59,579 nt of DNA. It comes from an uncultured virus (IMG/VR IMGVR_UViG_3300022602_000041). Lineage: Duplodnaviria; Heunggongvirae; Uroviricota; Caudoviricetes. Under the pieces are notes generated by a model that saw nothing but the letters and a program-made list of their open reading frames with translations, did not search any database and had not been told where the DNA came from. Position 1 is the stretch's first letter, and each line of letters begins with the position of its first letter. Positions 2,294 to 56,229 of this stretch are shown in pieces. The DNA is taken from the IMG/VR virus record IMGVR_UViG_3300022602_000041; one strand, 5' to 3'. The position numbers and the translations under genes were made by a program.

Positions 2294-3121
2294 ATGGCTA
2301 TTAATCCTTTACAGCAGTACTTTAGACAACCAAAAATCTACATCAGTTTACCTAGTCAAGGTGTTTATAATGCTCCCGGGACTATTCAAGGCGATGTTAA
2401 CAAAATACCAGTATACGGTATGACTGGTATGGATGAAATTATGGCAAGAACTCCAGATGCATTATTAACTGGAGAAAGTACCGTTAAGATTATCGAAAGT
2501 TGTTGCCCGGCTATTAAAAATGCATGGGATTTAAGCACATTAGACACTGAAGTAATTTTTAGCTCTATACGTATTGCTACGTATGGTAATAAAATGGGAG
2601 TATCTGCTACTTGTAAACATTGTAATACTGAAAATAGCTATGATATTGATTTAGGTTTCATTATAGAGCATTTTAGTAAATGTAAATTCGATAATCAAGT
2701 AATCTTAGATAATTTAATAGTTAAAATACAACCATTAAACTATAAACGTAAATCTGAATTCGCTATGAAGAATTTCCAACTACAGCAAAAATTAGCTCAA
2801 GTAGATTTTTTGGAAAACGAAGATGATAAACGCATTAAAATTGTAGAGCTTTTTAAAGAAATGGGTGAGATTCAAAATGAAATCTATATACAATGCGTTG
2901 AAAGTGTTGAAGCAGATAATAAAGTAGTAACAGAACGCCCATTTATTACCGAATGGTTGTTAAACTGTGACAGAGAAGTGTTTGAAAAAATTAAACAACA
3001 GATTGAAAAAAATCAAAAACAATGGACTGTTCCTGAATTTCCTGCGGTATGTGAAGAATGTAAGAAAGAAATTAGTCTTCGTTTAGATTTAGATCAATCT
3101 AATTTTTTCGAATCAGCCTAA
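2294..3121 (+). CDS. Baseplate hub assembly protein, T4 gp26-like
   Basis: NPLQQYFRQPKIYISLPS start, MTGMDEI, IRIATYG, two CxxC pairs (CKHC, CEEC), C-terminal NFF; adjacent to the tape-measure gene. Confidence 0.7.
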   Translation: MAINPLQQYFRQPKIYISLPSQGVYNAPGTIQGDVNKIPVYGMTGMDEIMARTPDALLTGESTVKIIESCCPAIKNAWDLSTLDTEVIFSSIRIATYGNKMGVSATCKHCNTENSYDIDLGFIIEHFSKCKFDNQVILDNLIVKIQPLNYKRKSEFAMKNFQLQQKLAQVDFLENEDDKRIKIVELFKEMGEIQNEIYIQCVESVEADNKVVTERPFITEWLLNCDREVFEKIKQQIEKNQKQWTVPEFPAVCEECKKEISLRLDLDQSNFFESA

Positions 3122-3342
3122 TTGGGTTAAGCCCTGTTGAAATCCAAGAGGCTCTAATTAGGCTAGACGAAGAAGTAAAACAATTTAAATTGGAATTATA
3201 TAGAATTAGCTGGTATATGCGTGGTGGTGTAACTATTAATGATTTGTTAGATCGCTACAGTTATGAAGATAGAGAAATCTTTTATAAAATAATTTCAGAT
3301 AATATCGAAGCTACTAAAAATTCTCAAATGCCGCTTATTTAA
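3103..3342 (+). CDS. Unannotated ORF in the -1 frame of the gp26-like gene; probable frameshift extension (tentatively gp51-like)
   Basis: Frame opens right after TAA 3100-3102 at the slippery heptamer T_TTT_TTC and reads FFRISLIGLSPVEIQEALIRLDEEVKQFKLELYRISWYMRGGVTINDLLDRYSYEDREIFYKIISDNIEATKNSQMPLI*. It fills the gap exactly and has no good start or RBS near its 5' end. Confidence 0.65.
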   Translation, partial: FFRISLIGLSPVEIQEALIRLDEEVKQFKLELYRISWYMRGGVTINDLLDRYSYEDREIFYKIISDNIEATKNSQMPLI

Positions 3343-3701: not shown

Positions 3702-4880
3702 TTAACCATTAGGATAACGTCGACGGTATTCTGCTTCATCTTCTGGAGTCCACCCTTGTCCAGTATTTGGATCTTTATATGGTTCGTTTCCAGAAGCGGC
3801 TGGTGCGGGTGGATTAGCAGTAGGTTCTGCTTGAGGAGATCCACCGGGTTGACTCGCTGTATTAGTGTTTGGTGTTGCAGTACTTGACGATCTTGTAAAT
3901 TCTTGATAATATCTATCAACTATTTTGCCAGCCCACTCAGTAGCTACACCTAACTTTTCTGCTATGGTGATTATAATATTAGCAGGTAGTTTTAATGCTT
4001 GCATGGTACCTATTAAACCAGTTAGTGTTTCGCCTAAACCTAGTGTCTTTATAAGAAAAGCCACCATCCACTTAGGCACTTCAGCCTGAGGCTCTTCAGT
4101 AAGTAACCTTTTATAAAATAGTCTCACTGCTGGATCAAATGCACCTCCAGCAAGTTGTGTAGGACGAAGCCATTTAAATATTCCACCTAGTAACGGAAAT
4201 CCATCTACAGAAGCTAACTCAAGTGTTTTAACTATTGAGTTGGCTAATATTGTTGCACTATTCTTAGCAAAAGTTTCGTCATCAAGATTTTGTTTAGCTA
4301 AAGAATCCATGTTTTCATAGTATCCTTGCCATACATGTGCATATGCTTCTAATTGTTGTGATGCTAATAACCATTTAAGTCCAGTTGTTATGGTTTTTTT
4401 TCTCAAAAGCCATGTGGCGGCAGTTATAGTAGTACCAACTGCTGTAGTAGTTTTTACGGGATTATTTTTAACTGCATCTACTGTTTTTTGCCCAGGACTT
4501 TTAGCGGCCTCCGCGGCGGCTGCATCTGCTTCTGCTTGTTTTATAGCTTGTTGCTCGCATAAACCAATTCTAGCGTTGTCTTGCACACGTACTCCCTTTT
4601 TAATACCAATACCATTTACAGGATCTTTATGATACCACTCACCTTTAGACTTCCAATAACTTTCGCCAGTAAACCTGCCCAAACCGTCTGGGATATTTAA
4701 TATTGACCCATCTGGCGCTTTACGAACTTCTGGTGGTGTTTTCTTCCACTTGAACCAATCAATTTTTTCACCCCATTTAACAACAGAGTTTTTAATACCT
4801 ACAGCAAAATCTTTAATAGCATCTATCTTACCAGCTTCATTTAGATTAGAACTTTGCTTAATAATTTCGTACACTTTCAT
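3702..4880 (-). CDS. Hypothetical late protein, possible internal/ejected virion protein
   Basis: 392 aa; MKVYEII...LNEA N-terminus; GAGGA RBS and ATAAATA promoter upstream; Pro/Ala-rich tail. Confidence 0.7.
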   Translation of the reverse strand: MKVYEIIKQSSNLNEAGKIDAIKDFAVGIKNSVVKWGEKIDWFKWKKTPPEVRKAPDGSILNIPDGLGRFTGESYWKSKGEWYHKDPVNGIGIKKGVRVQDNARIGLCEQQAIKQAEADAAAAEAAKSPGQKTVDAVKNNPVKTTTAVGTTITAATWLLRKKTITTGLKWLLASQQLEAYAHVWQGYYENMDSLAKQNLDDETFAKNSATILANSIVKTLELASVDGFPLLGGIFKWLRPTQLAGGAFDPAVRLFYKRLLTEEPQAEVPKWMVAFLIKTLGLGETLTGLIGTMQALKLPANIIITIAEKLGVATEWAGKIVDRYYQEFTRSSSTATPNTNTASQPGGSPQAEPTANPPAPAASGNEPYKDPNTGQGWTPEDEAEYRRRYPNG

Positions 4881-4899
4881 ACTTGTATCCTCGATAAGA

Positions 4900-4906
4900 T
4901 ATTTAT
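4900..4906 (-). promoter_or_regulatory. Late promoter ATAAATA
   Basis: GATAAATA about 20 nt upstream of ATG 4880. Confidence 0.65.
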
Positions 4907-4914
4907 CTAGTACT

Positions 4915-5392
4915 AGAAGAAGAACTTACGTTCTTCTGTTCTTCGCTTTCAGCTCGAACTTATTGTTTTCTTTTATTATAAACTGCGAAAGCAGTATTAA
5001 TATTATCCAGATCGTTCAGTCACACTTTGCCCTGGCGGGCAAAGTTTAACAACATTATCCGAGTCGAACAATATCACTTAGCGTTAGCATTACAAGTATT
5101 TCTACTAGCTTAGGCGGTCATCCTGTACCTAATCATGCTGTCTTTATATGACGGCGGGCTTAATACATACGCTAACACATATTAAACCGTGGGGCTACAA
5201 CCCCTCTTTTAGCCTTGAAATTCCCCTTATAGTTCAAACGGATTATAGGCATATTCCATCATCGTCCTGTTAAGGATAGTGAACTACAACTCTGACACCA
5301 AGCAGAACTACCTTACCGTCACACATCAGAACGGATTACGGGCACTAGATCAACGCCTGTGCGGGCTTATTTGGTGTTTTAACGGCCTGATT
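4915..5392 (-). ncRNA. Candidate large structured non-coding RNA (~480 nt), family not identified
   Basis: Only long gene-free interval in the window, GC-richer than its flanks. Contains about 10 hairpins, two long-range helices and a potential 8-bp pseudoknot. G-U pairs and GAAA/GUAA tetraloops favour the minus strand. Confidence 0.6.
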
Positions 5393-5394
5393 TA

Positions 5395-5820
5395 TTAGCT
5401 TTTGAGTATATGTGAACCATGTACACGCACTTGAATATGGCCATTATAATAGTCATTTGATTCTAAAACCTTGCGTGAAAACTGCTCACGAGCCTCTATA
5501 TAACTGCATTCTGCCTTAGATTTACAGTAATAAAGTATTTCTCTAGTAAAGTTTTCTGTACCTAACTGCGTAATATCCTTGGTCAATTCCGGCGATGAAC
5601 CATAATAGTCACGCCAGTCTGAATCAATTTTACTACGGATTTTCTTCTTTTTCTTAGTGCCGTTTTTAAGTTTTACTGTTTTGTAAGTAGTTTTGGAGAA
5701 TTTCGCTAATTTTTTGCCTATGTATTTGCGCCCTGTGATAGTATTTGTTATAAGATAAACAAACCCAACACAATCTTCGGGCAATTCTTCTACGATTTGA
5801 TTTTCATAATACCAGGACAT
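5395..5820 (-). CDS. GIY-YIG endonuclease, T4 endonuclease II (DenA)-like
   Basis: GFVYLITN...KYIGKK, SDWRDYYGSS, NFTREIL, E...YYN; 141 aa with no C-terminal DNA-binding repeats. Confidence 0.8.
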   Translation of the reverse strand: MSWYYENQIVEELPEDCVGFVYLITNTITGRKYIGKKLAKFSKTTYKTVKLKNGTKKKKKIRSKIDSDWRDYYGSSPELTKDITQLGTENFTREILYYCKSKAECSYIEAREQFSRKVLESNDYYNGHIQVRVHGSHILKS

Positions 5821-5832
5821 TAACTATGTATA

Positions 5833-6102
5833 TTATTCGTCCCCGGTACTACCTGCCTTTTGGTTTGCTTTGCGTTCTGCTTTGTTACGATCCAGCCACA
5901 CACGGTATTGCTGTACATGCACTCTACGCTCTTTGGCTATTATTCGTATTTGTGCTAACCAGTAACGCATGTTTTCGCCTGCGATCCTTGTGCCTTTTGC
6001 TTGCCAATCTTGATTTGCCTTAAAATATTCACGAAACGCCGCCATAAGTCGGTCATGCGACTCTTCATTTTGATATGGCGACGGTTCTACATGCTTACTC
6101 AT
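5833..6102 (-). CDS. Small basic helical protein, possibly Hc1/histone-H1-like
   Basis: Pattern F..N..W..KGTRIAG...R..L..IR..AKERR..VQ resembles the Hc1-like helical family; basic. Confidence 0.45.
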   Translation of the reverse strand: MSKHVEPSPYQNEESHDRLMAAFREYFKANQDWQAKGTRIAGENMRYWLAQIRIIAKERRVHVQQYRVWLDRNKAERKANQKAGSTGDE

Positions 6103-7880
6103 TATTCTATAATTTCTAAATCGTTTGCATAAGAAGTATATCCATTTTCCTTAACAACTTTAAGCACATTATTCACACGTCCGATTAGTTCGTCTTTGTG
6201 ACTAATAAGGAAAATATTCTTCTTGCGTTCCCGTCCCATCTTTTTAAGAACAGCTAACGCACCTTCGACTCCTGCAGAATCTAAACCATTGTCAATTAAC
6301 TCGTCAATAAACAATAAATTAATTTGTTGATATAAACTTTCCCATACATCTCTAAATGCCCAAGATAAACTTAAAATAAGTCTGTTACGCTCACCTCGAC
6401 TTAGATTGTCAAAATCTAAATCTTGCCCTAATTGAGTAATGATAACACTTAAATCATTTTGAAAAAGTACAGTATGGGGCAATCCCATCTTATCTAAATA
6501 ATAAGTTAATCGATTATTCAAATATGCTAAGTTTTGATCAATAATCTTTTTACGAATAAAAGAATCTTTGCTAGTTAATAGCTTTAATAAAAACTCTTGA
6601 TGATCTTTTAATGCAGTCAGCTCATTTATATAATCCCAAGAGATTTCTTGCATAGCAGTATCCATTAATTCATCGATCTGCTCTTGATATGGATCACTTT
6701 CATTTACTTTGATAGTCAACTGATTTTCTAAAGTTTTTAAATTATTCTGGTGCTTGAGCGCTTGCTCTAAACTATCATAATAAGTCTTAGGTCGGCCGTT
6801 AATATCACCAATAGCATCAACTTCCTTGATAATTTTTGCTAGATCTTTAGTAACTTTATCAAAATATTTCTTCGCCTCGGCCAAGTGACCTTGAGCAGTA
6901 GCAGTCATTTCTTCATGCTTGTGATCGTGTAGTTCTTGTTCACATGCGTGACAGGTCTTGTTAGCCAGTTTAGCAAGCTCGCCTTCGTATTTTTTGACAC
7001 TTCTCTCTGCTTGAGCAATCGCACTTTCTAGTGTAGCTTTCTCTTTATTCAGGCTTTTCAGCTTGGCTGCCTTTTCATCATACTCTTTTAGATCTGCATG
7101 CTTTGCCAGCTCTGCATCAATATCTACACTTTCTAATTCTACAATAGCTTTACCTATCTTTTCAAGATCAACTTGATGTTGCGTATTCCAAGCCGCTTGT
7201 CTTGTTAGTAAACTATCAATACTAATTTGTATTCTTTCGTTACTTTTCTTAGTAGCTTCGATATTAGCAGTCTCTTGTGTTATTTCATCTTTAGTAATGC
7301 GAATCATTTCTTTTAAAGATTCTGCTTTCTCAGACAATAATGTAATACCCAATAGCTGTTCAATGATAACTCGCTGATCATTAGCCCTCATACTTAAAAA
7401 AGGCTCGGTATAAGTGTTAAGAGCTACAATATGCTTAAACATATCGTGGCTCATTTCTAGTAATTCGTCTAAGTCTTTTTGTGTTTCACGCATCTCACCT
7501 TGAGCTTCATCAGTCTCTTCGGATTCCTGTGCATGATCATTAATATAAAACTGTAGTATGTTAGGTTTACGTCCACGTTCAATACGATAATCATTGCCAT
7601 CTTTTTCAAATGCTAGAGTGACTAACATATTATTTTTATTAATCTTGTTAATAAGATTATCTTTTTTAATATTAGTTAATGCATTTCCAAACAAAGCAAA
7701 ACTTAGTGCATTAGCAATAGTAGTTTTACCTGTACCATTTCTACTGCCGTTATCATCACCGCCTTGATCTAAGTTTTCACCTAGTACAAGTGTTAAGTTT
7801 TCCTGTGCAAAGTTTACAGCTTGGGTTTGATTACCTACACTCATAAAGTTTTTAACTGTTAATTCTTTTAATTTTATCAT
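6102..7880 (-). CDS. gp46: Recombination endonuclease ATPase subunit, gp46/Rad50/SbcC-like
   Basis: KNFMSVGN, Walker A NGTGKTT, coiled coil with zinc hook CHAC, signature LSRGE, Walker B LFIDE, ISH. Confidence 0.93.
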   Translation of the reverse strand: MIKLKELTVKNFMSVGNQTQAVNFAQENLTLVLGENLDQGGDDNGSRNGTGKTTIANALSFALFGNALTNIKKDNLINKINKNNMLVTLAFEKDGNDYRIERGRKPNILQFYINDHAQESEETDEAQGEMRETQKDLDELLEMSHDMFKHIVALNTYTEPFLSMRANDQRVIIEQLLGITLLSEKAESLKEMIRITKDEITQETANIEATKKSNERIQISIDSLLTRQAAWNTQHQVDLEKIGKAIVELESVDIDAELAKHADLKEYDEKAAKLKSLNKEKATLESAIAQAERSVKKYEGELAKLANKTCHACEQELHDHKHEEMTATAQGHLAEAKKYFDKVTKDLAKIIKEVDAIGDINGRPKTYYDSLEQALKHQNNLKTLENQLTIKVNESDPYQEQIDELMDTAMQEISWDYINELTALKDHQEFLLKLLTSKDSFIRKKIIDQNLAYLNNRLTYYLDKMGLPHTVLFQNDLSVIITQLGQDLDFDNLSRGERNRLILSLSWAFRDVWESLYQQINLLFIDELIDNGLDSAGVEGALAVLKKMGRERKKNIFLISHKDELIGRVNNVLKVVKENGYTSYANDLEIIE

Positions 7881-18800: not shown

Positions 18801-19275
18801 AATGAGTGATGAAATTATATACCATCCTGTGAATTATTTGTTATTATTTGGAGCTCAAGCAGATCAAAATCTACAAGCTACATTTAATGTAGTAAAAAAC
18901 CCTAGTAGTACAGCTAGCACAAATGAAATTGTTGCCGGAGTATTACAAGCAATAAACACATTCTTCGAACTTCAAAATTGGAATTTCGGAGATACATTTT
19001 ATTTTGCAGAATTAGCAACATACGTAATAACAACCATGAGTCCTGATATTAGCAATTTTGTTATTGTTCCAGTACAACAAGATTTGTATTTTGGAAGTTT
19101 ATTTGAAATACAATGCCCAAGCGACCAAATATTAATCAGTTGTGCAACTGCTGAAAATATTAATGTAGTATCGGGTTTAACTTCGGATAATCTAAAAACT
19201 GTAACAGGACAAGGGTTAACCTCAACAATAACAAGTCAAAACATAACTAGCGCAACATACGGAGCAAGTACATAA
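15805..19275 (+). CDS. gp6: Baseplate wedge subunit, gp6-like
   Basis: DFDNLR..MIDY.....PEDFNDY.ESS, ARENFL..A.RRESVLRLA..ISY, FADGTFG..P, ES...I..NAP..Y.TQNRMIT..DY. Confidence 0.85.
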   Translation: MSSTDRQNNLLISENWQKIYQSFKNADFQSYDFDNLRRTMIDYIRTNFPEDFNDYIESSEYLALIDLIAFIGQSIAFRVDLNARENFLELAERRESVLRLARMISYNATRSVPASGLLKFNTVQTTDTVLDSNGINLAGQVITWNDSSNSNWYDQFIRILNAAFPSTQQFGTPIDQATIYGIPTSQYRFNASNTNIPTYSFSSSISGYSMNFEVTSTTFSGKDYIYEEPPKLGNHIACVYRDDGYGAGSPTTGFFFNFTQGTLNQSTFNITQPSSNQTININSQNINNNDVWLWQLDQSTNLENTLWIKVPSLTGNNVIYNSLNLNTQTIYNVITRAGDTIALGFADGTFGKLPLGNFRVYYRLSNGLAYSINPTDIINVSIDIPYVNSQGQNQVLTVTLNLATSVTNATASESNASIQQNAPQNYYTQNRMITGEDYNISPLTTTQSVAKVKAINRTSSGISRYFDLIDPTGKYSKTNLFGDDGIIYQEPYVLTTTFTYVTQTDIEAVIYNTIFEILENPNLRNFYYANYINNIAESLNVSWTAVTIDSNSSTGFIKNINDSVVVKLGSFTSTDLVYFASGSLVKFSAPTGQYFNTKKNNALATIPASGIPNGGTNYLWAQVVSVSGDGTSGGTGILSTGYGTVTLNQVIPTGAILTHSLPQLITIIQPSVITTMIDLIFSNTPFGLSYNDITQNWQIIFETNLNTINSFSLSNQGNISGSQQDSSWMLLFTTNNVNYTVTTRLLRYVFESDKEVTFYFDSTTPVYDTVSGTTILDNLKILSINTQPNSSYPFTLDLDWQIISDYVGLDGYTDPTKIVVAFASSTNNGIVDNPQLFLDIVNPDNLTTFIVLQKYLISAGQEDYQYVNNDDDLVIIVPTQSAIGALTQYTDGQYFYCIDTQTSLQYNASTSRLNPTLDVLVYVGRDKLKFQYTHNADYDSRIDPGASNIMDVYVLTNSYDTAFRQWVLAGAPSDGSEPLPPSSAELNSLLSSSLNPIKAMSDEIIYHPVNYLLLFGAQADQNLQATFNVVKNPSSTASTNEIVAGVLQAINTFFELQNWNFGDTFYFAELATYVITTMSPDISNFVIVPVQQDLYFGSLFEIQCPSDQILISCATAENINVVSGLTSDNLKTVTGQGLTSTITSQNITSATYGAST

Positions 19276-22200
19276 TGGCCAATGGAAAAAATCCAATTAG
19301 TAATAATGGTCTTGGAATAAATCTCCTTCCTACATATTATCAAACTGACACTAATAAAAAGTTTATTCAAGCAACCGTTGATCAGTTGTTTCAACAAGGC
19401 GGTGTTAACAAAACTAGCGGCTATATCGGAAGACAACACGCTAAATCTGCTACAGGCAAAGACATATATGTATCTTCAAGAAATTCTGTACGTCGACACT
19501 ATCAGTTAGAACCTGGAATTTCAATCGAAGATACTTTAGGAAATAATACATTTTTTAAAGATTATATCGATTATGTAAATCAAATTGGTACATTAGGTGG
19601 AAACACTGCTAACCATGCTCGATTAAACAAGCAAGAATTTTATTCTTGGGATCCCCATATTGATTGGGACAAGTTTGTTAACTTTCAAAACTATTATTGG
19701 TTACCATACGGTCCTGAAACTATTACAATTTATGGACAGAAAGCCGCAATCACTAGCACATATACTGTTACGGTTGAATCTGAATTAAGCAATAACGAAT
19801 ATTTGTTTACTCCTAATGGATTCACTAGAAATCCTGTATTAAAATTATATATTGGACAAACATATATTTTTGAAATTAACAGTCCTGGAAATCCTTTCAG
19901 TATTAAAACTGCACGTAGCGCAGGCAATGCAGATCGTTATGAAATTCCAGAGATTGATAACTATGCAGTTGAAAATGGTACTATTACATTTACAGTACCT
20001 TATGATGCTCCTAATTTGTTATATTATCAAAGTGAATCAGATTTACAATTAGGTGGAGTATTTGAAATACTTCCTATTACTGATGATACTTATATTGACG
20101 TTGAAAATGATTTATTAGGTAAAAAGTCGTATACACTTCCAGACGGTACTGCGTTAAGTAACGGAATGAAACTTGCATTTGGCGGAAATGTTACTCCTGC
20201 AAAATATGCTAGCGGAGAATTTTATGTAGAAGGTGTGGGTGTTGCAATTACACTAATTTCTACTAAAATATTACAAATTGTAAACACCTATACAGTTGAG
20301 AAAACTGTTCCTTTCGATAGCGATAAATTCGACTCTCAACCTTTTAGTGATGAAACTGGATTTGCAGGCGCGCTTGATTATATTACCATTAGCCGATCTA
20401 GTAATGATTATAATAATTGGTCTAGATATAATAGATGGTTTCATAAAGATGTAATTACAGCTAGTGCATCTTATAATGGAAATGTTGCAGATATTGATCA
20501 ATCAACAAGAGCGGTAAGACCAATTATCGAGTTTAATTCGAATTTAAAGTTGTTTAATTTTGGTACAAATGCAATTCAAGATATTAATTTAATAGATAGT
20601 TTTACTACAGATGCATTTTCTACCATCGAAGGCTCTGCCGGATATAATGTCGACGGTATTGCATTAACACAGAATCAATTAATTGTTTTTACAGCAGACA
20701 CTGATCCTTTAGTACAAAATAAAATATATCAAGTTGATTTTGTTGATGTAATACATTTAGATTCAGGAAAAAAGCAAATACATTTAATAGAAGTAGCATC
20801 ACCATCATTGAATGATGTGATATTAATAACTTCTGGAATTAACAATCAAGGAAAATCTTATTGGTTCGATGGTAATTCTTGGATATTAGGACAGCAAAAG
20901 ACCGGTGTAAACCAAGCACCATTATTTGATATAGTTGATGAAAATGGTATCAGTTACGGGGATAATAGTGTTTATACTGGTTCAACATTTGTTGGAACAA
21001 AGTTATTTTCATACGCAATCGGTACAGGTGCCGACGATAACATTTTAGGATTTCCGTTATCTTATTTGAATATTAATAATATCGGAGATATACTATTCAA
21101 TTTTAATTTAGCTACAGATACGTTTAATTATAAACAATCTACAGCAATTATAACAAAAAATATTAGTTCAGGCTATTTGTCTAGTTTAACTTATTCAGGT
21201 AATACTTTATATGTTAATGGTTGGCAAACTTGCACAAGTGCTACAGTACAAGCCGCAGTTAGAGTATATAATAATTCTGGAAAAACAAATAATTTTCCTG
21301 TTGATATTTTTGATAACATATCAGAGCTAAGTGATCTTGTAATTAAAGTTTACGTAAATGGTTATAGATTAGATCCAAATCTCTGGCAATTAGTTGCAGG
21401 ACCCATTTATTATAATGTTGTTTTAACTAATGCAATTCAGTCAACTGATATTTTAACAATTAGAGCTTTCACTTCTCAGCCAGTTAACAATAATGGCTAT
21501 TACGAAGTTCCAGTAAATCTTCAAAATAATCCTTTAAATGATGTTATGGGTTCATTCTCGTTAGGAGAAGTAACAGATCATTTAACCAGTATTGTTGATA
21601 ATATTCCTAAAGGGTTTGTTGGATCAATGCCAGGCGATAATAATTTAAGAGATCTGGGAAATATAACACAGTACGGTACTAAGTTTGTACAGCACAGTGG
21701 TCCATTAAGTCTTAGTTTATATCATATAACATCTGAATCAAATAATATTGTTCGAGCAATACAAGAAGCAAGAAACGATTATGGTAAATTCAAAAGAAAC
21801 TTTATAACAACAGCAAGTTCTCTTGGTGTCGATGGCGATCCAATTACTATAACAAATCTAGTATTACAAAAATTAAACGCAAATATACCGAATACTGCTC
21901 CTTATTATTTTAGTGATATGGTTCCCTATGGTGCGGCAATTGTTACGCCTTTAACTGTAGTAGATTACAGAATCAAGCAATACCCATTAACAAACGAATT
22001 TAATTTATCTACATTATCTAACAAAGCAGTTGGAATTTATCAGACAACGAGCGGAGTCACTACTCAACTTGTGTATGGAAGAGACTATACATTCAGTAGC
22101 ACATTTTTTATTATAACTGATAATGTAAAATTAACCAATGGTGATATATTAACAACATATGAGTATGATAGTACTGATGGTTGTTTTATTCCAGAAACTC

Positions 22201-25200
22201 CGACAAAAATGGGAATGTGGCCTGCATATATTCCCCAGATCTATATGGATACTACATTAGTTGCACCTCAATTAATGATTCAAGGTCATGATGGCAGCCA
22301 AGTATTAGCATATGGTGATTATAGAGATGATTTAATTTTAGAATTAGAAAAGAGAATTTTTAATAATATTAAAGTACAATATGATCCTGATATTTTTGAT
22401 ATCAATGATATTATTCCAAGTTATAATAGAACAACTGATTACAGTTTAGCAGAATTTAATGAAGTACTTGCTCCTAATTTTTATACATGGGCGCCATTGA
22501 CAGGAAAAGATTTTTCAACTCCGTTAAATTACGATATTAATAATACGTTTACTTACAATTATTCAACATCAGTCGCACCTAACGGCACCAGCGTTCCAGG
22601 CTATTGGAGAGGAATTTATCGTTATTTGTTAGATACGGACCGTCCTAACATATGTCCTTGGGAAATGTTAGGTTTCAGTATAATGCCAAGTTGGTGGATT
22701 TCATTGTATGGTCCAGCTCCATATACTGGAGATAATTTGCCTATGTGGCAAGATATTGCTAATGGTACTATAAGGGTGCCAGGACAACCTATAACCTATC
22801 TAAGTAAATATGCCAAACCTTTCTTAATGGAACATATTCCAGTTGATAGCGATGGTAATTTGTTAAGTCCGTTACAGTGCGGTTTAACTAAAGGTCCTAA
22901 TTCTCCTAGTTTTGACAATAATTTTGTATTTGGCGATGTTAGCCCAGTGGAATCTGCATGGCGCCGAGGTAGTTATTATCCATATAGTGTAATAATTGCA
23001 AGTATGTTATTGGCACCAGCAAAAACATTTGGATTGCTATTAGATAAAAGTCGTATTCAACGTAATTTAGCAGGACAGTTAATTTATACCGATACGGAAT
23101 TAAGAATAACGCCATCAGACATTATTGTTCCAAGCATATATTCTAGTAATAGTAGAATACAGACTTCCGGTCTTATTAATTTTATTGTAGATTATATTTT
23201 AAACTTTATTTTTAGTAATAATATTAAATCGTATGACGGTTATATCTATGATTTAAAAAATATGGATATAACTTTATCTTATAGATTAGGAGCATTTACT
23301 AGTAAAGAACAGTTTAATTTACTTTTAGATTCTCGTTCACCTACAAGTACTGGTAGTATATTTGTTCCTCAAGAAAATTATAATATAATTTTAAACAAAT
23401 CTAGTCCTGTGAAAAAAATAACTTATAGTGGAGTTATTGTTACAAGATTAAATTCAGGATATGAAGTTAAAGGATATAGTAAAACAGAACCTTATTTTTA
23501 TTATTTTCCTTATACCCAGACTGGACAAATTATAAACATTGGTGGAATTAGCGAAAGTTATAGCCAATGGACTCCTAATCAACAATATATTGCAGGTTCT
23601 ATAGTACAATATCAAGGATCATATTATAGATCTACTGCTACAACTACTGCTGGTACAACATTTGATACAACGTTATTTGCGGCATTAAATGGGTTACCAA
23701 TAACTGGAGGAGTTCAAGCAAATCTCAGAACATCTTGGGATACTTCTTCTCCTATTTTAGTTCCTTATTCTACACAATTTACTACCATACAGGCAGTTGT
23801 TGACTTTTTATTAGGCTACGGAAAATATTTAGAAACTCAAGGATTTATATTTGACGATTTTAATAATAATTTAGGATCTGTGGCAAACTGGACTACTAGT
23901 GTAAATGAATTTTTATTTTGGACAACTCAAAACTGGTCAGCCGGACAAAACAAATGGAGTGATTGGATTCCTAATCAACCTGTTACCTACGGAAGTATTG
24001 TAAGATACAACGGAGATTATTACAGCGCATTGTTTAATCTTGCGGCCAGTGATATATTTGATCCATTAAAATATTCTAAGTTAGACGGACTAAGTGAAAT
24101 TGGCAGTAGCGTTATTAGTTTGAGCCCAGGTGCTAATCGATTAATATTTGGTACAAATCTTACAGTAGTAGATGATATTTCTAATCCATTTTATGATTAT
24201 GAGATTGTAAAAGTTGATGGTACACCGATTCAACCAACATTTTTAAATTCTTATAGAAATGGAAATGTCGTAAGTTATACTACTACAAATCATGATGGTA
24301 TCTATGGTGCAAGTTTTTACTTGATACAAAATGAACATGTTGTTTTGTTGAACAACACAACAATTTTTAATGATATAATTTATAATCCTACTAGTGGATA
24401 TAGACAAGAAAGATTAAAAATATCTGCGTATGTTAGCGAAGGGTGGTATGGCGGTTTTGATATTCCTGGATTTATATACGACAGAGCTATAATACAAGCA
24501 TGGGAACCATTCCAAGATTATAATCTTGGAGATATTGTATTAAATCAAGGAAATTACTATAGTGCAAATTCCTTCCTTCCAGGTGTACCGTTGTTTGATT
24601 CTTATAATTGGACAAAATTAGATAGTAAACCTGTTCCTAAGATATTGCCCAATTGGACAAATAGTGCTACACAATTTTTAGATTTTTATAGTACAGATGT
24701 TGACGGATTTAATTCCGATCAACAAACTCAGGCTCATCATTTAATTGGATACCAGAAACGTCAATATCTAGATAATATTATACAAGATTCTGTTAGTGAA
24801 TTTAAATTCTATCAAGGAATGATTAGAGATAAAGGTACACAAAATGCATTAAATCATTTATTTGGTGTACTCACAGAAGATAATTCTGAAAGTTTAACAT
24901 TCTATGAAGAATGGGCAGTTCGTGTTGGACAATATGGCGCCGCAAGCGCATTTCGAGAAATTGAATTTATATTAGATGAACAACAGTTTATTTCTAATCC
25001 TCAAGGTTTTAGTTTATCGACAGTAGTTGATCCTTCCTTTAAGGGCACGTTTATTATTCAACAAACTCCTAATGATGTATATTTAAAACCAGTCGGATAT
25101 AATAGTAAGCCTTGGCCGTTATTAACAAACTATAATCCATTTTTGAGAGACGCAGGATATGTAAATTCTGCAGATATTTTTATTTCGCTAGGATCATTAT

Positions 25201-28200
25201 CGCAAATTACTAGCCAGGATATTACAACTTTTTATGAAGGTGCATACGTTTGGATAACATTTGATAGTGCTCCTGCTTTTTGGAATATATATCGCTATAC
25301 AGATTTACATTTACAAATTAATAGTGTTACATATTCAAGCGGATCATTAAAAATTACAGCAACTAATATAGTTAAAAATATTACTAAAGGATCTTATGTT
25401 GGACTTACACAAGTTTCTGCCTTGCAAGGATTCTTTTTAGTTACTGATATAGAATTAAATGTAATAACATTATCGGCAACTATTAATAATTTTCCACAGC
25501 CATTTACTCCAGCATTATGCGAAAAATTAGTAGTATTTGGAATGACTCCTCAACGTGTGTCTTCTATCGATGCCCTTGATTCTGTAATTACAAAAACTAC
25601 CCTTCCTAATGAATTAGTATGGGCAGATAGCACTTTACCAACCGACGATAGTTGGGCCGTATGGAAATATTCTTCAGTATATCAAATAAGTAATATACCT
25701 AACAATGCTCCACAATCAGAATTAAAATTCGGCTCGTCTATTGCAGTTAATAATCAAGGAACATTGGCAGCCGTAACTACTTCATTCGGGCAAGTAATTA
25801 TATACGATAAAATTGGAATTTCAGTAGCCTGGACACAACGTCAGGTACTAACTCCACCGTTTATTGCTACAAATTCGTTAGTAACAACTACATTAAACAC
25901 AACAGTAAACAGTAATATAGTTGCATGTGCCGCCGCACAATCGAGTTGGGTTGGCGGTATTATATCTGGCCCAGGAATTCCTTATAATACTATTATAACA
26001 ACGGTAACACCAGGTGTCAGCATGGTACTTGGCCAAGAAGCAACAACTACTCTTTCTGGTAACACTTATCTTATTGTACTACAAAACAATATTAATCCTC
26101 TTAACACTATTGCATCTACAGTAGCAATTAGTTATGACGGTGAATGGATGGCATCAGGAAGTCCTCTAGCTGGATCTGCTGTAACTTCTTATTTAGGTAC
26201 ATATAATTCTTCTAATGTTTATGGTCCAGGCACAATTGTTTCGGTCATTTCTGGAAGTATTACAAAATATTACGAAGCGTTATCTGTAGTTCCGACAAAT
26301 ACTACACCTACTTCTAATCCAAATTATTGGGGAAATCTATATTATCTTCCAGTTAATGATTACGGTACTTGGGATAATAATACAGATTATCCATTACATA
26401 CTCTTGTAGTGTTTAAAAATAATGTATATAAAGCAAACAAACAGATTTATAGATCAATTAATTTATTAATAACCAGCACTTTATCGACTTATGTTTCTTC
26501 TGGAACTACATATCAATACGCACTAACAACAACTGATACCAGTGAATTAGGGGCAGGATATGAAATTATCTTTTCTGGAGATGTATTTGGAGATCTACAA
26601 GTTACTGGTGCAAACGGTTCCGGCGCAATAGCAAAAATTAATTTTCCAACACAGTTAGTTCCTCCATTCTTAACAGGACAAACAATTACTGTATCAGAAG
26701 TAATTCCTACAGCTTATAATGGAACTTATACAGTAATTAGTTGTACGACTAGCTCTGTTAGTTTTGCAAGTAACGCTACAGGAGTTTTATTATATCCAGG
26801 AAAGATAACAACTTCAAATGTAGGATCAATAAGTGGATTGATAGCAGGAAATACTTATTATATTGCTAATATTATAGATTCAAATCATTTTCAAATAAGT
26901 GCTACCGCAGGAAGTTCATCGTATGTTCCGTTAGTTACTGCTTACGGAACAATGGTAGCCACCCAACAAGCTCAACTAACTCCAGATGTTGCAGTAGACC
27001 CGCTTACTGGAACTCCGTTGTGGACTTATGTTACAAATTATTTCTCAACGATAACTGGCCCATCAGGTCAAGGTGTAGTAAGTCTTTATAAGAAAGATTA
27101 CAACAATATATATTCTTTAGTAGATACTATTCTTAGCCCATTGCCGAGCGCAAACGAAAACTTTGGTTCAAGTTTAATATTTGGTGGCGATAATAATTTG
27201 TATATTTCTGCTCCAGGTTATAGTAATAATGCTGGAAGAGTTTATAATATTACCTATAGTACTGTTGTACAAGAAACTTATGCTTATAATCCTTCTGGTA
27301 GTGAAGAATCTACACTTGTATTGTCTAGCACTTCTGGAATACGTGCAGGAATGGTTGTAATAGGAAATGGGTTCACAAGTGGTCAAACTGTTGTAGAAGT
27401 TGTTAATTCAACTACATTGACATTAAGTGGTACACCAGATTCAACTCCATCGGGCGTATTAAGTTTTGCTATAGCCGGATGGGGATATAATTGGTCACAA
27501 ATCTTTACTGGAACTATTAATCAAGGATTTGGATATAGTATAGCGCTAAGTGCAGATCAAACTACATTAGCTATTAGTGCAACTAACGGGTTATCAAATG
27601 CAACAGTTAACATTTATACTAACACCGGAAATGGATTTGAAACTCCACAAATAATTACAACAGTTGATAGTAATATTCAACTAGCATTATCGGGTACTGG
27701 TACATATATTGCTATCGCTGATGATACTGCAAGTACCTCACAAATAAAAGGACAAGGTTCTGTTACAATTTATTCTTTAAATTCTGTAGGGCAATATGTA
27801 CAGTATCAAACTTTAGCATTACATCAGCCTGAAATTAATGGACATTTTGGCCGTAAGATTTCTTTCATGAATGATTACAACACACTTGTAGTGTATAGTG
27901 AATACGGTGATACAAATGTAACTACAACATTTGATAGTAATAAAACAACTTTTGACAAAAATTCAACAGTATTTTCAGTAACTCAAACAAATAGTGGACG
28001 CATTGATGTATACGATCGATATGCAACTCAGTGGGTATATAGTGAAAGTTTAACAAAAGTGAACCCAGTAGTATCGTCTGCTCTTCTTATTCCAGGTAAT
28101 ACGTATGATATCCTTACATTAGGAACTACAGATTTTACTACGATTGGCGCTTCAGCAAATAAAGTAGGTGTACAATTTGTTGCCACTGGCGGTGCTATTG

Positions 28201-31200
28201 GTACTGGAACTGCGGCACTTGTTACTAGCGAATCTGGCGTATTAGATGGTTATGGAACAGGTTTTGCAGTAGGAGCTAACCATATTTTAGTAGGAGCTCC
28301 TAATGGTGTAGATAGAGGATTACAATCTGGTCTTATATTTGATTATGAAAAATCTCCAGGATCATATTCTTGGACAAAGATGCGATCAAAATCGACTATT
28401 CCTGATGTAACTAAGATTAAAAAAGCATTTTTATACAATAGAATTGATGGCGAACTAATTCAATATATTGATTTTATTGATCCTGCCCAAGGAAAAATAC
28501 CAGGCCCAGCAGATGAGGAAATAACTTATAAAGCGTTCTATGATCCAGCGGTATATACTTATATTGCCCCGGACGCTACTATTACAGTTAATGTAAATGC
28601 TAATGCATCTTGGACTACTGCACAGTTAGGACAACTATGGTGGGATTTAAGAACAGCAAAATTCTTAAATGTTTATGTTGATGATGTAATATATCGTAAT
28701 TCAAATTGGAATACATTAGCTACAGGAGCTAGTATTGACATTTACGAATGGGTATCGTATAGTGGACTTCCTTCCGCGTGGGATTTATTAGCAGATACTC
28801 CTACAGGATTAGCTCAAGGTATAAGTGGAACTAGTATATACGGTAATAATGCGTATAGTGTTAGCCAAGTTTTTAATAGTGTAACAAATAAATTCACTAA
28901 AACATATTATTTCTGGGTTAAAAACAAAAAATATATTCCAAATGTTCCAGGAAGACATATGGATGCGTTAGATGTTTCTAATCTTATTGCAAATCCAAGA
29001 GGTCAAAATTATACATATCTTGCATTGACTAGTGAAAGCACATTTAGTTTAGTTAATGCAAAACAATTTTTACAAGATACGCAGTTAGTACTAAGTGTAA
29101 ATTATTGGTTAATCGATAATGTGGACCAAAATGTTCATAGACATTGGAAAATTATAAGTGATGATCCTACAACAATTATACCAAAAAATATTTTACAAAA
29201 ATGGATTGATAGTCTTTGCGGAGTCGATGAACAAGGCCGCGTAGTACCTGATCCTGCACTGCCTCTTAAACTGCGTTACGGTATTGAAAATCGCCCACGT
29301 CAAGGAATGTTTATAAACAGATTTGAAGCATTGAAAGAATTTGTAGATATTGCTAATCAAACTCTATTACAAAATCAAATAGTTGAAAATAGTAATTTAT
29401 CGTCCTTAGAAAGTTACGATCCTATTCCAAATGCAGTATTAGGCATGTACGATAGCACAATTTCTACGGATGCAGAATTACCTTATTCAAATATTGCAAA
29501 TTATTCAATACCTGTTATAACTCCAGTAATCGGCAGCGGTCGAATTATAGGAGCCACTATCTCTTCTTCAGGTAAAGGATACTTAGTTGCTCCTTATATA
29601 GAAGTTCATGGATCGGGCACCGGAGCAATATTACGAGCAATTATTAATTCTAAAGGTCAAATCACAGGAGTTGATGTTATATCATCTGGTATCGGATATG
29701 ATGTTGATACAACATTTACAGTTAGAAATTATAGTGTATTAGTAACTAGCGATAGTGGTGCAGATGGCAATTGGAGTATATATTCTTATGATCCTGTATA
29801 CAAGATATGGAGTAGAACACTAACCCAAAGTTATGATGTTAGAAAATTCTGGAATTATGCAGATTGGTATGGATCTTACACAGATCCGACTTCGAATAAA
29901 GTATTATTTATAGCCACGCAGTTTACCGCACCAGATTTTTCTGTTGCAACACTTTCAGATTTAAACAATATATCTGTTTCAATTGGTGAAACTGTTAAAA
30001 TAAGAACAACAGGATCCGGTGGATGGTCATTATTATACAAATATTCTAATACAGTATCGGTGGATTGGACACAATCTTATGCTACAGTAGGGTTGCAAAA
30101 TGGAACTATCCAATTAAGTAGTAATTTGTATAAAATGGCCGGAACAAATCTAGGCTATGATAATATCATATATGATGCAGATGGCTTTGATTTGTACGCC
30201 GCAGTTGAATTAAGAATTATACTTAATGCATTACAAAATAATATTTTTATAAACACTTTAACAGGTTCATATTTAGATTTATTCTTTGATAGTGTAAGAT
30301 ATGTTCATAAAGAACAACCTTATGTTGATTGGATCTTTAAAACTAGTTTTGTTAAAGCAGAACATAGCGTTGGTTCTTTAAATCAACCAGTGACATATCA
30401 GCCTGATAATCTCAGCAATTTCCAAGATTATGTTAACGAAGTTAAACCTTATAGAACTAAAGTTAGAGAATATGTAGACAACTACACTAATTTAGATGTA
30501 TCTCAACTACCGATTACAGATTTTGATTTGCAACCAATATATGAAAATGGTAGCATGACAGTATTGCATGCTTACGTTGTGAATGATAAAATAGTTACTT
30601 CAGATCCAAATATAAATGTTGCTCCTTGGAAAAATTGGTTCAAAGATGTAGGTTTTGAAATAACAGAAATTATATTAACTAGTAATGGGTTTAATTATGC
30701 AACTATTCCTACTGTTGTAATATCAGGAGGTGGCGGAACTGGAGCTACTGCTAAAGCATTTATTACTAATGGTTCAGTAAATAGAATTATTTTATTAACA
30801 CCAGGCAGCGGATATCTTTCAGCACCTACAGTTACAATACAAGGTGGATTAGCTGAAGGTGGTGTTGCCGCAACAGCAGTTGCAATTATTGGTGATAGCG
30901 TTGTTAGATCGACACTAGTAGGTATGAAGTTTGATAGAATCAATCAAACATATTATATTACCCAGTTACAAAAAACGGAAACATTTACCGGAACGTCAAA
31001 TCGTGTGCAGTTTCCACTAACATGGGCACCTGATGTACGTATAGGACAAAGTACTGTTACTATTAATAATACTTTAGCTTTGAGAGATAGTTATGTATTA
31101 AATATCACCAGTTCAAAACTAAATGGGTATACGCAATATGCTGGAAATATAACATTTATAAGCCCACCAGGAATAAATGCAGCCATTTCTGTTACATATA

Positions 31201-34200
31201 ACATCGATCAAACTCTTTTAAATGCGACAGATAGAATACAATACTATTATAATCCTACAGCAGGTATGTTAGGAAAAGATATTTCACAATTACTAACTGG
31301 TATCGATTATGGCGGAGTAATAGTCAGCGGAATGAATTTTGTCGAATCTAACGGTTGGGATAGTGTTCCTTATTATTCTTCAGGCTGGGATTCTTATGAT
31401 TCAAACTATACAGACTATTCTGTAGTAGTAGCGGCAAATACACATTCGTTTACATTGCCATATACTCCTTTGGCAGGCACTCAACTAACAATTTACAAAA
31501 ATCAAACGTACACAAATAGCTATACAGTGGAAAGTTTGTCGACAACAAAATTCCAATTTAATGTTTCTGATGTATCGCCAGTTGTTAGTGCATCTTGGAG
31601 TACAACAACTACAGGATCATCTAATGTTGTCGGTAGTTCAACATTACATCTTACTAGTACAGCTGGAATTAAAGAAGGAGATAGTGTTTCTCAAACTGGT
31701 ACCAGTTTATTTGTAGAAGGAACAACTGTATTAAGTATTGTAAATGCTACAACAATCACGCTAAATTATATTTTATATAATGCAATTACAGCTGGTAGTA
31801 GTGTAACATTTACTAGAACTTTAACTCAATTTGTAGATTATGTAATTCCTAATACAAGTGATATTAATTTAATTAGTTTTACTAATTCAAATATTATTGT
31901 AGGTACAAATATTACTATTACAGGAAAATTAAATCCTATAAGATTAGATGATCCTAATTATAATATCTATCAACAATTTATTTCTTTAATAATTTCATCA
32001 GTGACGTATGATTCTTTGTTTGGAAGCAATTATCAAAGTATCCAAACAGGTAATTCAATTTTAATATATTCTACTGTACGCAATTATCGTTCAGCTGAAA
32101 CTATTTTAGCAATTAATAATCTTGTTAGCAATATTACAGAGTTATCTTTAGTATCTTCAAACGCATCTGCTGTATCATTGATTAATAATTATGCAAATAT
32201 TATAACAACAATTGTTAGCGGTGGAGTTGTGCCAACGCCAATATATCCTTCGCCATACGGTACACCTGTAGTAATTACATATACTGCACCAGATGTTACT
32301 ATTGGAACATTAGGCTATTATGTATATTTGCCAGTAGCAAATGTTAACGCTACACAAGTGACAACAAACTGGACAGTAACTGGCCCAGGCATATCAGGAA
32401 TAGCTACAGTATTAAATGTAACCCTACATAATGGATATGTTGCGGCTCAAATTAATATAGAAGTCGTAGAATATTATGAAAATGGAACATATACATTCCA
32501 ATCTCCTAATGGAGGAATTACTAATGCCGCAATTTTATTGAATGACAATATACCTTTTATTCAAGCAGAAATGGTTGCGTATATTAAAGCAAATTATTCC
32601 GGATACAGTACTAGTATCAGCGCTTTCCAAACACAAATTCAATATACAGTTGAATCTTTAATTTATAATTTGTTATATGGTGGAAATAGTCAATCATTAT
32701 TAACAGCCGAAGTATACGGAAATACTTATTTGATAGATCTGGATACAGCGGATTTGAATACATTCGATACTAATATATACAACCATATTAATACATTAGT
32801 ACAAGATATTATTTCTAATATTACAGTTACGCCTTTACAGACACAATTTTTACAATATGAAAATAGTTCTTTAATAAATGGTTCGTTAGCAGGTACAGCA
32901 CTTTCTAACAATATCTCTACGGTAATAAATTATTTGACAGGCGGCTCAGTAACAACAATTAATCCAACAATTACATTGGGCTCAATGTCGTTACAGCCAA
33001 TTGCTGAAAATATATTATCTTCAGAAACTTTGTTAATTCCTGTTTATAATTCTAATTCTATTGTGAATACATTCTTAGCTGACGGTGTTAATACTACATT
33101 TACCATTCCAAACACATATACTGTAAATAAAGGCGATGAATTTGTTATAAGACAAATTACTAGCGATGGTTCTATCTTGCCTGCAGATTCTGATTATGAT
33201 ACTTCTTTAAGTGGTGGCAATACTAGTCAATTAAATGGAGTTTATGCTACCGCTACAGGGTTATTAGCAGATGATATTATTGTTGACGGTGATGATTTTG
33301 TAACACCGGATACAAGTGGAGCGCCAGAAGAAGTAGTACCAGGGCAAGTAGTTGATACTGTGGCTATTAAAGTGTTTGACACTCCTCATACTGGATCTGC
33401 AAATATTAAAGTTGACAACTACATTACTAATGGAGTTTCTGCATCGTATTCTTTGAGTCAAATTCTTAATAGTTCTGGTGCAGTCATTGTTAAACTTAAC
33501 GGTAATATTAAAACTTTAAACACAGATTATACTATAAATTATAATACGCAATCTGTAATTTTAAATTCAATACCTCCTGCTAATGAGCAACTTAGTTTGT
33601 TTAGTATAGGGTACAACGGAAAAAATATCTTAGGTATTGATTACTTTATAGGTGATGGATTAACAACTGAATTTGTAACAAACATAGAATGGACAACTCC
33701 TGTTACTAGTTTAGTTTATTTAAATGGAGAAGTTGTAAATCCTATACTGTTTAAAACTGATAGCACTTATTCTATCATAGATACTATTGGGTTGCGTTTT
33801 TCAATTGCTCCAGCAGATGGTCAGATTATTAATTATATTATTGTCAGCGGTACAGAAAAAACATTCTCTATTGCTACAGTAGAGACTGTATCAACTAATG
33901 GCGGGCTAACATATACATTGCAAAATCAAATTGGTAACAATTTACCAAACGAATCAAACATGCTAGTTAGAGTTGACCAATCAATATTGCAACCACCTAA
34001 CAATGTATATTTTACTATTGGAAGCAATCGTTTAAACTATATCATAGATCCTATTAAGTTTGTTCCATATTCTGTTGATATAAAAGATATTGTTGTAATA
34101 ATAGGAACAACACCATTAAAATTAGGAACTGATTATGTAGTAGATTTAGGCGGAATCTCGATAAAAATTACTAAAAAGATTTATTCAGCATATACAGGAC

Positions 34201-51311: not shown

Positions 51312-51599
51312 TTATCTACTTTGTAAGACAGGACATGCAATTGTGAAAAAGCTAAGTTCTTTTTCACTTTCGAAGCCAACACGTATGTTATAAACAATAG
51401 TGTTAGTCGAATCTAATGTAATGCCCTGCCCTACATAGTATCTGTTATTTAAATTCTTGCGTATCCAATAGTCGATGGATTTGACTAAGTTAGGGTTGTA
51501 TCTGTCTACAGTTGTGTATTTGAAATGAGGGCAAGCAAACTCGACCCTCCTTAAATCGAAATATGTCAGAGCGTTAGGTTTGCCGTTTTTTAAACTCAT
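51312..51599 (-). CDS. Hypothetical protein
   Basis: 95 aa, ATGA overlap with the upstream gene. Confidence 0.7.
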   Translation of the reverse strand: MSLKNGKPNALTYFDLRRVEFACPHFKYTTVDRYNPNLVKSIDYWIRKNLNNRYYVGQGITLDSTNTIVYNIRVGFESEKELSFFTIACPVLQSR

Positions 51600-52780: not shown

Positions 52781-52809
52781 TTATGCTCCTGAATGTTTAC
52801 TATGTATAT

Positions 52810-52838
52810 AGTATAACACCTCCCGAAGGAGGTGTCAA
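52810..52838 (-). promoter_or_regulatory. Sigma70-type promoter with a hairpin in its spacer
   Basis: TTGACA-N17-TATACT; AGGAG RBS downstream. Confidence 0.8.
52816..52835 (-). terminator. UUCG-capped 8-bp hairpin after the AAA gene (terminator or processing site)
   Basis: ACACCTCC-TTCG-GGAGGTGT followed by TATACTATAT (weak U tract). Confidence 0.5.
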
Positions 52839-52854
52839 ATAGTGCTAAACCGAT

Positions 52855-56037: not shown

Positions 56038-56229
56038 TTATTGATCTAGTGGAAAAGTATTCCACTCTTTGATTAGGGCAATAACTTCTTCTTCTGTATT
56101 GCAGATACTTTTTGTAGTAGCCCAATCGTCTTTTTTATTACGGCCACCAATTTCAACCATCCAGCCGTTATCATAACGATTGATAGTGATGTTTTCATTT
56201 ACTTTTGCTAGTTTTGCTAATTTACTCAT
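56038..56229 (-). CDS. Small hypothetical protein
   Basis: Probable start MSKLAKL at 56229 (AAGGA RBS, overlaps the halogenase stop). Confidence 0.7.
   Translation of the reverse strand: MSKLAKLAKVNENITINRYDNGWMVEIGGRNKKDDWATTKSICNTEEEVIALIKEWNTFPLDQ

Follow-up and report, generated by a model that had tools for sequence, protein, structure and literature searches.

The window analysed here (the whole 59,579-nt stretch of DNA from an uncultured virus of the Caudoviricetes, IMG/VR record IMGVR_UViG_3300022602_000041) comes from a T4-related giant phage, and its minus strand carries a run of genes for a gp55-like sigma factor, gp47, gp46 and a small ORF, with a GIY-YIG nuclease gene (5395-5820) as the last member. 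Between this gene and a variable 392-aa ORF (3702-4880) that has no family match lies what an initial annotation had singled out as the only long gene-free stretch and as the seat of a structured RNA. With 514 nt (4881-5394), it is indeed the window's longest ORF-free stretch, two longer listed gaps being discounted since both are covered by ORFs that use another start or have an open end. A scan of the minus strand from 4800 to 6200 found no sigma-70 promoter and, as the RNA lies on the same strand as the gp55-47-46-nuclease genes, its co-transcription with them is plausible. Elsewhere, the window holds a gene for a baseplate hub with a short ORF after it (2294-3342), an ORF of 5454 aa (19275-35639), what we take from its motifs to be a sedolisin-like protease (37285-38514) and, presumably and again by motifs, a vWA and MoxR-type ATPase pair, a tryptophan-halogenase-like gene and a T4 RNase H-like gene, listed alongside at 51596-53943, 56222-57739 and 57736-58728. 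The following features were distinguished in and around the gap:

5395-5820, minus strand: stand-alone GIY-YIG endonuclease of 141 aa (PF19835, SegE_GIY-YIG, 116 bits; phrog_447)
5371-5377, minus strand: 5' leader, pairing with hairpin loop 5295-5301 (edge columns, 73-83% paired)
5227-5367, minus strand: 5' domain, the Polynucleobacter-1 motif RF01718 (full model, 75.2 bits)
5157-5215, minus strand: linker with hairpin 5191-5204, a 12-bp hairpin (5157-5188) and a GGC strand (covariation)
5078-5175, minus strand: conserved core with pseudoknots 5169-5175:5078-5084 and 5148-5152:5117-5121 (covariation) and, within it, helices 5136-5139:5086-5089 and 5128-5131:5111-5114
5054-5066, minus strand: direct repeat 1, heptamer 5060-5054 (covariation, repeat identity)
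5024-5045, minus strand: perfect 9-bp hairpin with a U-rich linker before it, between the direct repeats
5002-5014, minus strand: direct repeat 2, heptamer 5008-5002, the same as repeat 1 wherever positions vary (covariation, repeat identity)
4915-4997, no strand assigned: A+T-rich tail (66%) with mini-hairpins of DNA type (hairpin counts over tails)
4982-4995, plus strand: mini-hairpin with a C-GAAA-G loop, in the tail
4938-4960 and 4918-4937, minus strand: mini-hairpins with G..A loops, in the tail
4898-4908, minus strand: late-promoter-like AT box ahead of ORF 3702-4880, with a conserved ATAAAT column, a likeness that we assume from the T4-type consensus

The minus strand of the gap is densely paired, as had been proposed: its fold reaches a z-score of -3.59 against shuffles, none of 100 shuffles being as good, with -2.46 for the plus strand, and each stem quoted in the initial annotation is present in the sequence where it had been placed. 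Since the minimum free energy fold of the head alone (5070-5380) reaches a z-score of only -1.39, support for the head comes from covariation, for which an alignment of 120 distinct class-A sequences (the relatives that match from the 5' end, see below; mean identity 66%) was used. The top covarying pairs in this alignment are mostly Watson-Crick helices. At 34 selected, well-aligned helix pairs, 3686 of 4060 cells are Watson-Crick, and G-U combinations outnumber A-C combinations by 235 to 23, which indicates that the head acts as a minus-sense single strand, most likely RNA, rather than as a DNA cruciform. Covariation and the G-U bias bear out a large, pseudoknotted RNA read from the minus strand (5377-5000, about 380 nt) with at least four pseudoknots, of which the leader 5371-5377 is the probable 5' end. 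In a 31-row alignment, where relatedness inflates the count, double-sided changes in the core structure number 75, compared with 25.6 for shuffles, and 0 of 500 shuffles are as high.

Several of the pairings had to be redrawn. The loop 5169-5175 does form the predicted pseudoknot, but with 5078-5084 (99% paired) rather than with 5083-5090 (88%); its three central pairs are Watson-Crick in 120/120 sequences with two pair types each, and bases of 5083-5090 pair instead with 5136-5139. The GCCGUC/GACAGC stem is merely 68% paired and gives way to a second pseudoknot, between 5148-5152 and 5117-5121. The long-range pairing of 5371-5377 with 5295-5301 is present but, as read from the alignment, its partner is a hairpin loop, which makes it a pseudoknot too, and the AGUA-GAAA-UACU stem (5095-5106) is there in the sequence but is an optional insert among relatives. 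The GGC strand of the linker pairs with loop 5247-5250 (76% paired). In the 5' domain, columns 5264/5276 covary strongly as non-canonical U-C and C-U pairs (81 and 38 of 120).

The RNA had also been described as unrecognised. This holds for tRNA, tmRNA, RNase P and introns (Rfam, ARAGORN) but not for the 5' third, which is Polynucleobacter-1 (RF01718): model positions 1-141 match 5227-5367 at 75.2 bits against a gathering threshold of 37 (E 3.8e-14), the window's one Rfam match at gathering level. The remaining two thirds of the RNA have no family-level Rfam match; GOLLD, ROOL, OLE, group I/II introns, RNase P, tmRNA and tRNA gave no match in Rfam or ARAGORN, ribozyme families none in Rfam at gathering level, and HEARO or IscB/TnpB-associated RNAs none in Rfam either at gathering level or at E<=10. 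At 5090-5190, a likeness to cow-rumen-2 (RF02947) stays below threshold (20.9 bits, gathering 66, E 0.29); the two have in common a UUAGC-loop hairpin, GCCG.CAU and ACAGGAUGACC, and cow-rumen-2 may be a remote version of this core, although by score it is no member. Polynucleobacter-1 was published as a candidate RNA, possibly cis-regulatory, from 16 representatives (Weinberg et al. 2010, PMC2864571). Its family model spans 141 nt, whereas in the window it is the 5' domain of an RNA of about 380 nt that is followed by an 80-nt DNA-like tail. Beyond the known 5' third, the whole length of the element, its identity-locked repeats and its DNA-type tail would be new; none of the three had a literature match by title or start of abstract, in a search outside which most subscription papers lie.

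Among the strongest covarying pairs, four link identical rather than complementary bases (5065=5013, 5060=5008, 5056=5004 and 5054=5002) and delineate two direct repeats either side of the U-rich linker and the 9-bp hairpin. Identity is 0.99-1.00 at the last three of these pairs and 0.86 at 5065=5013. Both heptamers are identical in 138 of 140 distinct elements, against a mean of 31.5 and a maximum of 49 in 10,000 shuffles, counts in which the search pattern itself fixed 3 of 7 heptamer positions and which, the sequences being related, overstate the independent events; the heptamers are also identical in 9/9 loci that the pattern missed. No third strand complementary to the repeats appears among the top 110 covarying pairs. 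Two other readings of the repeats were rejected: a codon followed by TAA/TGA, as in a gene-60-like bypass (the island and RaK2-like repeats hold no stop), and a CsrA sponge (GGA is not conserved).

The tail that follows carries hairpins of another kind. In 138 tails (16.6 kb), C-GNA-G loops number 69 on the sense and 78 on the antisense strand, and 61 of these tails have them on both; the 116 heads compared (38 kb) hold 0 and 3. The broader class of C-GN(N)A-G hairpins is found in 106/138 tails in the sense and 83/138 in the antisense orientation, with 6.2 and 4.7 in doublet shuffles; cUUCGg loops are absent. Mini-hairpins of the C-GNA-G type are described at the G4, RSF1010 ssiA and N4 initiation sites and have a far higher stability in DNA than in RNA (PMC13037366). 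Stems 4982-4995 and 4918-4937, which had been counted as RNA, resemble such DNA mini-hairpins instead, and the 3' 80 nt are better read as DNA. DNA stability of the mini-hairpins and their enrichment in tails together suggest a bipartite element, with an RNA head and a DNA tail.

The protein encoded next door is, by its modelled structure, a bare GIY-YIG catalytic domain. Profile, fold and catalytic motifs all agree on a GIY-YIG nuclease: the model matches the I-TevI catalytic domain (Z 8.0, rmsd 2.8, 82 aligned) and Slx1 at just Z 3.1, while G19-Y22, Y33-G35, E109 and N126 are invariant in 32 rows. The protein also has a basic beta-hairpin. Foldseek gave no match at E<=0.001 and a PDB sequence search a chance match alone. 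phrog_447 carries the label 'NAD synthetase' in PHROGs and in many GenBank records; the protein is a GIY-YIG nuclease. The gene is single-copy in three near-complete genomes. Homologues occur in 478 cultured phage records, and the element or a long gap lies beside the homologue in 0/5 of those inspected. In the cultured phages closest by gp55, a resolvase or endonuclease VII gene comes after gp46, with a long gap next in 3/4 inspected, and the slot beside gp46/47 holds a resolvase, endonuclease VII or GIY-YIG gene in many phages; by analogy, we infer that the GIY-YIG protein may fill the resolvase role. PF24608 and PF02945 matched 0/5 records, but control searches were likewise silent.

Relatives of the element were collected in viral contigs by two routes. 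With the GIY-YIG protein as query, 588 relatives were found, and an element profile trained on 44 nuclease-found loci plus the window matches 75 of the best 80 of these 588, the five others being loci where the contig ends within 166 nt of the gene. In 51 of the 75 the match begins at the 5' end (class A), and in 24 it is confined to the 3' part; 22 of these 24 were aligned and form class B (another head, same core) and class C (another head and core). A covariance model of the core (R1) reaches class B and misses class C, the island copies (class D) and the RaK2-like RNA (E), with a best E of 0.9. One 3' module stands behind three different heads in phage contigs and behind a fourth on the islands described below. 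The near-complete genomes G002-G004 and the window each hold one element (four profiles), which in G002-G004 has a fixed single position. The second route, a gene-independent pattern search, gave at least 120 loci, 80 of them with flanks, in a set that overlaps the nuclease-found one. A pattern scan of the genome collection was too loose (real matches 6/120); one real match, L321, resembles phage sequence and carries gp47, gp46 and GIY-YIG genes. By blastn, the window element has no match in cultured phages or plasmids, and an island copy has a lone 36-nt chance match in plasmids.

Five of the 80 flanked loci are too short upstream, and in 68 of the remaining 75 the directly upstream gene is GIY-YIG, among the matches listed. 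Within the same listed matches, another gene intervenes between GIY-YIG and RNA in 3/75, a PD-(D/E)XK 'RusA-like resolvase' replaces GIY-YIG in 3/75 (once followed by RNase H) and an amidoligase-like gene stands in its place in 1/75. The flanks of the element are an insertion hot spot. At L099, a near-consensus sigma-70 promoter and then about ten tandem 14-bp repeats, either iteron-like or an assembly artefact, precede the element, with an RNase H gene beyond. L162 has an RNA without the first ~90 model positions, into which the GIY-YIG frame continues, through either a deletion or a misassembly. Unrelated cargo genes sit between nuclease and RNA in L005, L010, L046, L049, L055, L057, L058, L063, L107 and L117.

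Outside phages, 13 of 121 Polynucleobacter genomes (the genus of G012) hold an RF01718 match that exceeds the cut-off. Class D comprises 16 aligned island copies in which the 5' domain is kept, the middle is different and the same module closes the element, its heptamers being new and wholly different from the phage ones; among 14 complete copies, these heptamers are identical in 10, differ by one mismatch in 3 and by two in 1. The islands have no adjacent GIY-YIG gene. All 11 island regions listed have a divergent DUF6641-like gene upstream and a 188-212-aa recombinase downstream, and 10 of the 11 an AAA ATPase (by N-terminus likeness), nearest to the phage clamp loader (phrog_168), these families being confirmed on 1 (DUF6641-like), 1 (recombinase) and 3 (AAA ATPase) proteins in a scan that covers 22 of 201 ORFs. 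tRNA-Phe or -Met genes are present in 5/12 island stretches. L398-L409 are small integrative islands with an integrase, a clamp-loader-like ATPase, two unknown ORFs, a catalytic-domain-only recombinase and DUF6641. The island family is apparently unstudied; we found no literature on DUF6641, and a DUF6641 search in viral contigs gave no match.

A similar layout is seen in cultured jumbo phages. Records that conserve the 121Q gap number 73 (~490 nt, 67-75% identity in distant ones), and ten aligned RaK2-like units share a promoter-like box, a structured body, a repeat-U-tract-hairpin-repeat order, an A+T tract and mini-hairpins. In 10/10 units the two repeats agree at 6-7 of 7 positions, and in K64-1 they change together. 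There are four copies in 121Q and five in BF, all on one strand and spaced by 55-105 kb. The repeat word is largely common to the paralogs of one phage, but both repeats of the 121Q 193-kb and BF 93-kb copies share a variant without counterpart in paralogs, and such copy-specific variants inside one genome indicate a requirement in cis. One RaK2-like copy occupies the same syntenic slot as the window element and the repeat-hairpin-repeat-AT-minihairpin order is common to both, whereas the head is different, the promoter is its own and the copies number four to five. The 121Q 90-kb copy holds the window's core words (CCGTCAT..ACAGGATGACC). Homology between the RaK2-like RNA and the window element is likely, a link that rests on these short core words and on layout since the core covariance model misses it. 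Class-A profiles have no match in the PA5oct, Phosso, 121Q and Vibrio gaps. Syntenic gaps of about 1 kb in PA5oct (L410:12860-14380) and Phosso (L411:16560-17570) hold promoter-like boxes, a CCCC/GGGG hairpin and mini-hairpins, and have no Rfam or profile match; the Phosso gap is followed by an RNase HI gene, and no cultured phage holds a relative of it. The four PA5oct ncRNAs described in PMC7318152 sit outside the syntenic gap.

Our preferred, if tentative, reading is that the element may be a bipartite, transcript-primed R-loop replication origin. RNA polymerase would make an RNA of about 380 nt that folds, as covariation shows, into the multi-pseudoknot head. The repeats, observed to be identical, would be kept so because a strand carrying one copy hybridises with the complement of its twin: two copies have to be the same where a single strand needs to pair with the complement of one or the other. 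RNA repeat 1, brought near by the hairpin, would then invade the template at repeat 2 and give a persistent RNA-DNA hybrid; the hybrid would open the A+T-rich tail, where C-GNA-G mini-hairpins on both single strands may load a helicase or primase, and the RNA 3' end would prime leading-strand synthesis, either as it stands or after trimming by RNase H. The GIY-YIG protein would be the operon's branch-processing nuclease, a neighbour of the element, and the Polynucleobacter islands may keep the module as satellites exploiting the replisome of a helper phage. A transcript-primed origin would be the simplest account of the locked repeats, the DNA-type tail, the constant module behind changing heads, the islands and the RNase H genes, which adjoin the slot in L099 and in phage Phosso. 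The tail (66% A+T) comes right after the RNA, a layout that fits a predicted transcript entering an unwinding tract, with no minus-strand promoter of its own found, and hairpins of the single-strand-initiation type lie downstream of the RNA, as expected of RNA-primed origins. GC skew switches at the element in 0 of 3 near-complete genomes and tracks gene direction; such a switch would not be expected of replication that runs one way or is driven mainly by recombination. Several points weigh against an origin: a primer calls for neither the conservation nor the number of pseudoknots seen in the head, features that suit a catalytic or scaffold RNA; seven matching nucleotides are few for strand invasion; a repeat word common to paralogs agrees with a phage protein that binds both copies; and, with 22 of 201 island ORFs scanned, the islands may encode a Rep that escaped notice.

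The main rival, which we consider rather unlikely, is an ornate RNA acting in trans, as a GOLLD/ROOL-like scaffold or sponge, with the repeats as twin sites of a dimeric phage protein or as 3'-end processing marks and the tail as a terminator or promoter spacer. Deep conservation, the four or more pseudoknots, the 4-5 promoter-led copies of RaK2-like phages and a repeat word that is mostly phage-specific across paralogs would all suit such an RNA; C-GNA-G triloops on both strands are instead DNA features, and neither the exchange of heads over a kept 3' module nor copy-specific repeat identity within one genome is what it predicts. HEARO and omega RNAs, which go with HNH or IscB nucleases, and GOLLD and ROOL resemble the window RNA in being large ornate RNAs found beside a nuclease gene or in phages. 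The initial annotation had hinted at a HEARO/OMEGA-like nuclease partner; in such a ribonucleoprotein the GIY-YIG protein would be scaffolded or guided by the RNA, and the element's presence at 75 of the best 80 of 588 nuclease-found loci, the nuclease directly upstream in 68/75 RNA-found loci among the matches listed, and the basic beta-hairpin speak for it. This partnership is nevertheless very improbable and largely refuted, since the GIY-YIG gene is exchangeable or absent: the upstream gene is replaced or missing in 4/75 loci among the matches listed and on islands, the same head occurring with a PD-(D/E)XK resolvase (3 loci) or without nuclease (1 locus and islands). Moreover, nucleases 73-85% identical precede unrelated heads, the RNA has no variable guide segment, the cultured homologues inspected lack the element, the protein is merely a 141-aa catalytic domain, and the element adjoins GIY-YIG only and no cognate HNH/RuvC nuclease. 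The GIY-YIG gene is therefore a neighbour of the RNA and an unlikely partner.

Two further explanations carry less weight than the trans-acting RNA. A cis-acting DNA site for recombination-dependent replication or packaging, where slipped-strand or branched repeats are cut by the adjacent nuclease and transcription just opens the site, is improbable; it would explain why the slot adjoins gp46/47 and a resolvase, endonuclease VII or GIY-YIG gene in many phages, and islands too would benefit from a packaging or recombination site, but no nuclease is adjacent in L132, on the islands or at the copies in BF, Yen9-04, XbC2, XaC1 and K64-1, and a 300-nt strand-specific RNA fold would be left unexplained. 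We regard as more improbable still a self-mobile or catalytic RNA, either a ribozyme or a template on which a reverse transcriptase switches from one repeat to the other. An invariant pseudoknotted core, the identical repeats that a template jump needs and occurrence across phages and islands agree with it; on the other side, RVT_1 matched 0 of 5 records, 3 of them near-complete (the control matched 3/14, and divergent reverse transcriptases could escape), no ribozyme family matches at gathering level, and the position in G002-G004 is single and fixed.

Returning to the transcript-primed origin, two known systems come close. At the T4 R-loop origins oriF and oriG, of which there are several per genome, a transcript enters an A+T-rich unwinding tract. 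The window resembles them in its T4-like replication genes and in the A+T-rich tract downstream of the predicted transcript; to our knowledge, no T4 origin transcript is an ornate RNA, and none has a mini-hairpin or twin-repeat module. Nucleation of the hybrid at the ColE1 origin was reportedly treated by Masukata and Tomizawa in 1990. ColE1 uses a long folded RNA of 555 nt as primer, and the likeness to its RNA II extends to a long folded transcript, a predicted hybrid near the 3' end, the RNase H link and no need for a Rep protein (PMC11012335). The window element differs in having no sequence likeness to ColE1 (plasmid matches 0) and in its co-changing 7-13-nt repeats and many pseudoknots. 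No antisense RNA I was seen, and Rfam gave no RNAI match.

It is possible, although we hold this broader reading with less confidence than the origin itself, that the element represents an undescribed, widespread class of origins in which an exchangeable ornate RNA primes DNA synthesis through re-annealing between identity-locked repeats, in T4-related jumbo phages and in tRNA-integrated satellites that hijack their replisome; the heads of this class would be several, unrelated or distantly related, with Polynucleobacter-1 and cow-rumen-2 as pieces of it. If so, an RNA motif orphaned since 2010 would have a job and would turn out to be one piece of something considerably larger, and a replication origin would be named for a large group of jumbo phages and for a family of satellite-like islands. 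The concerted change of two direct repeats is an unusual and testable signature of strand re-alignment and, as the same layout occurs in cultured coliphages, the question may be answered in E. coli.
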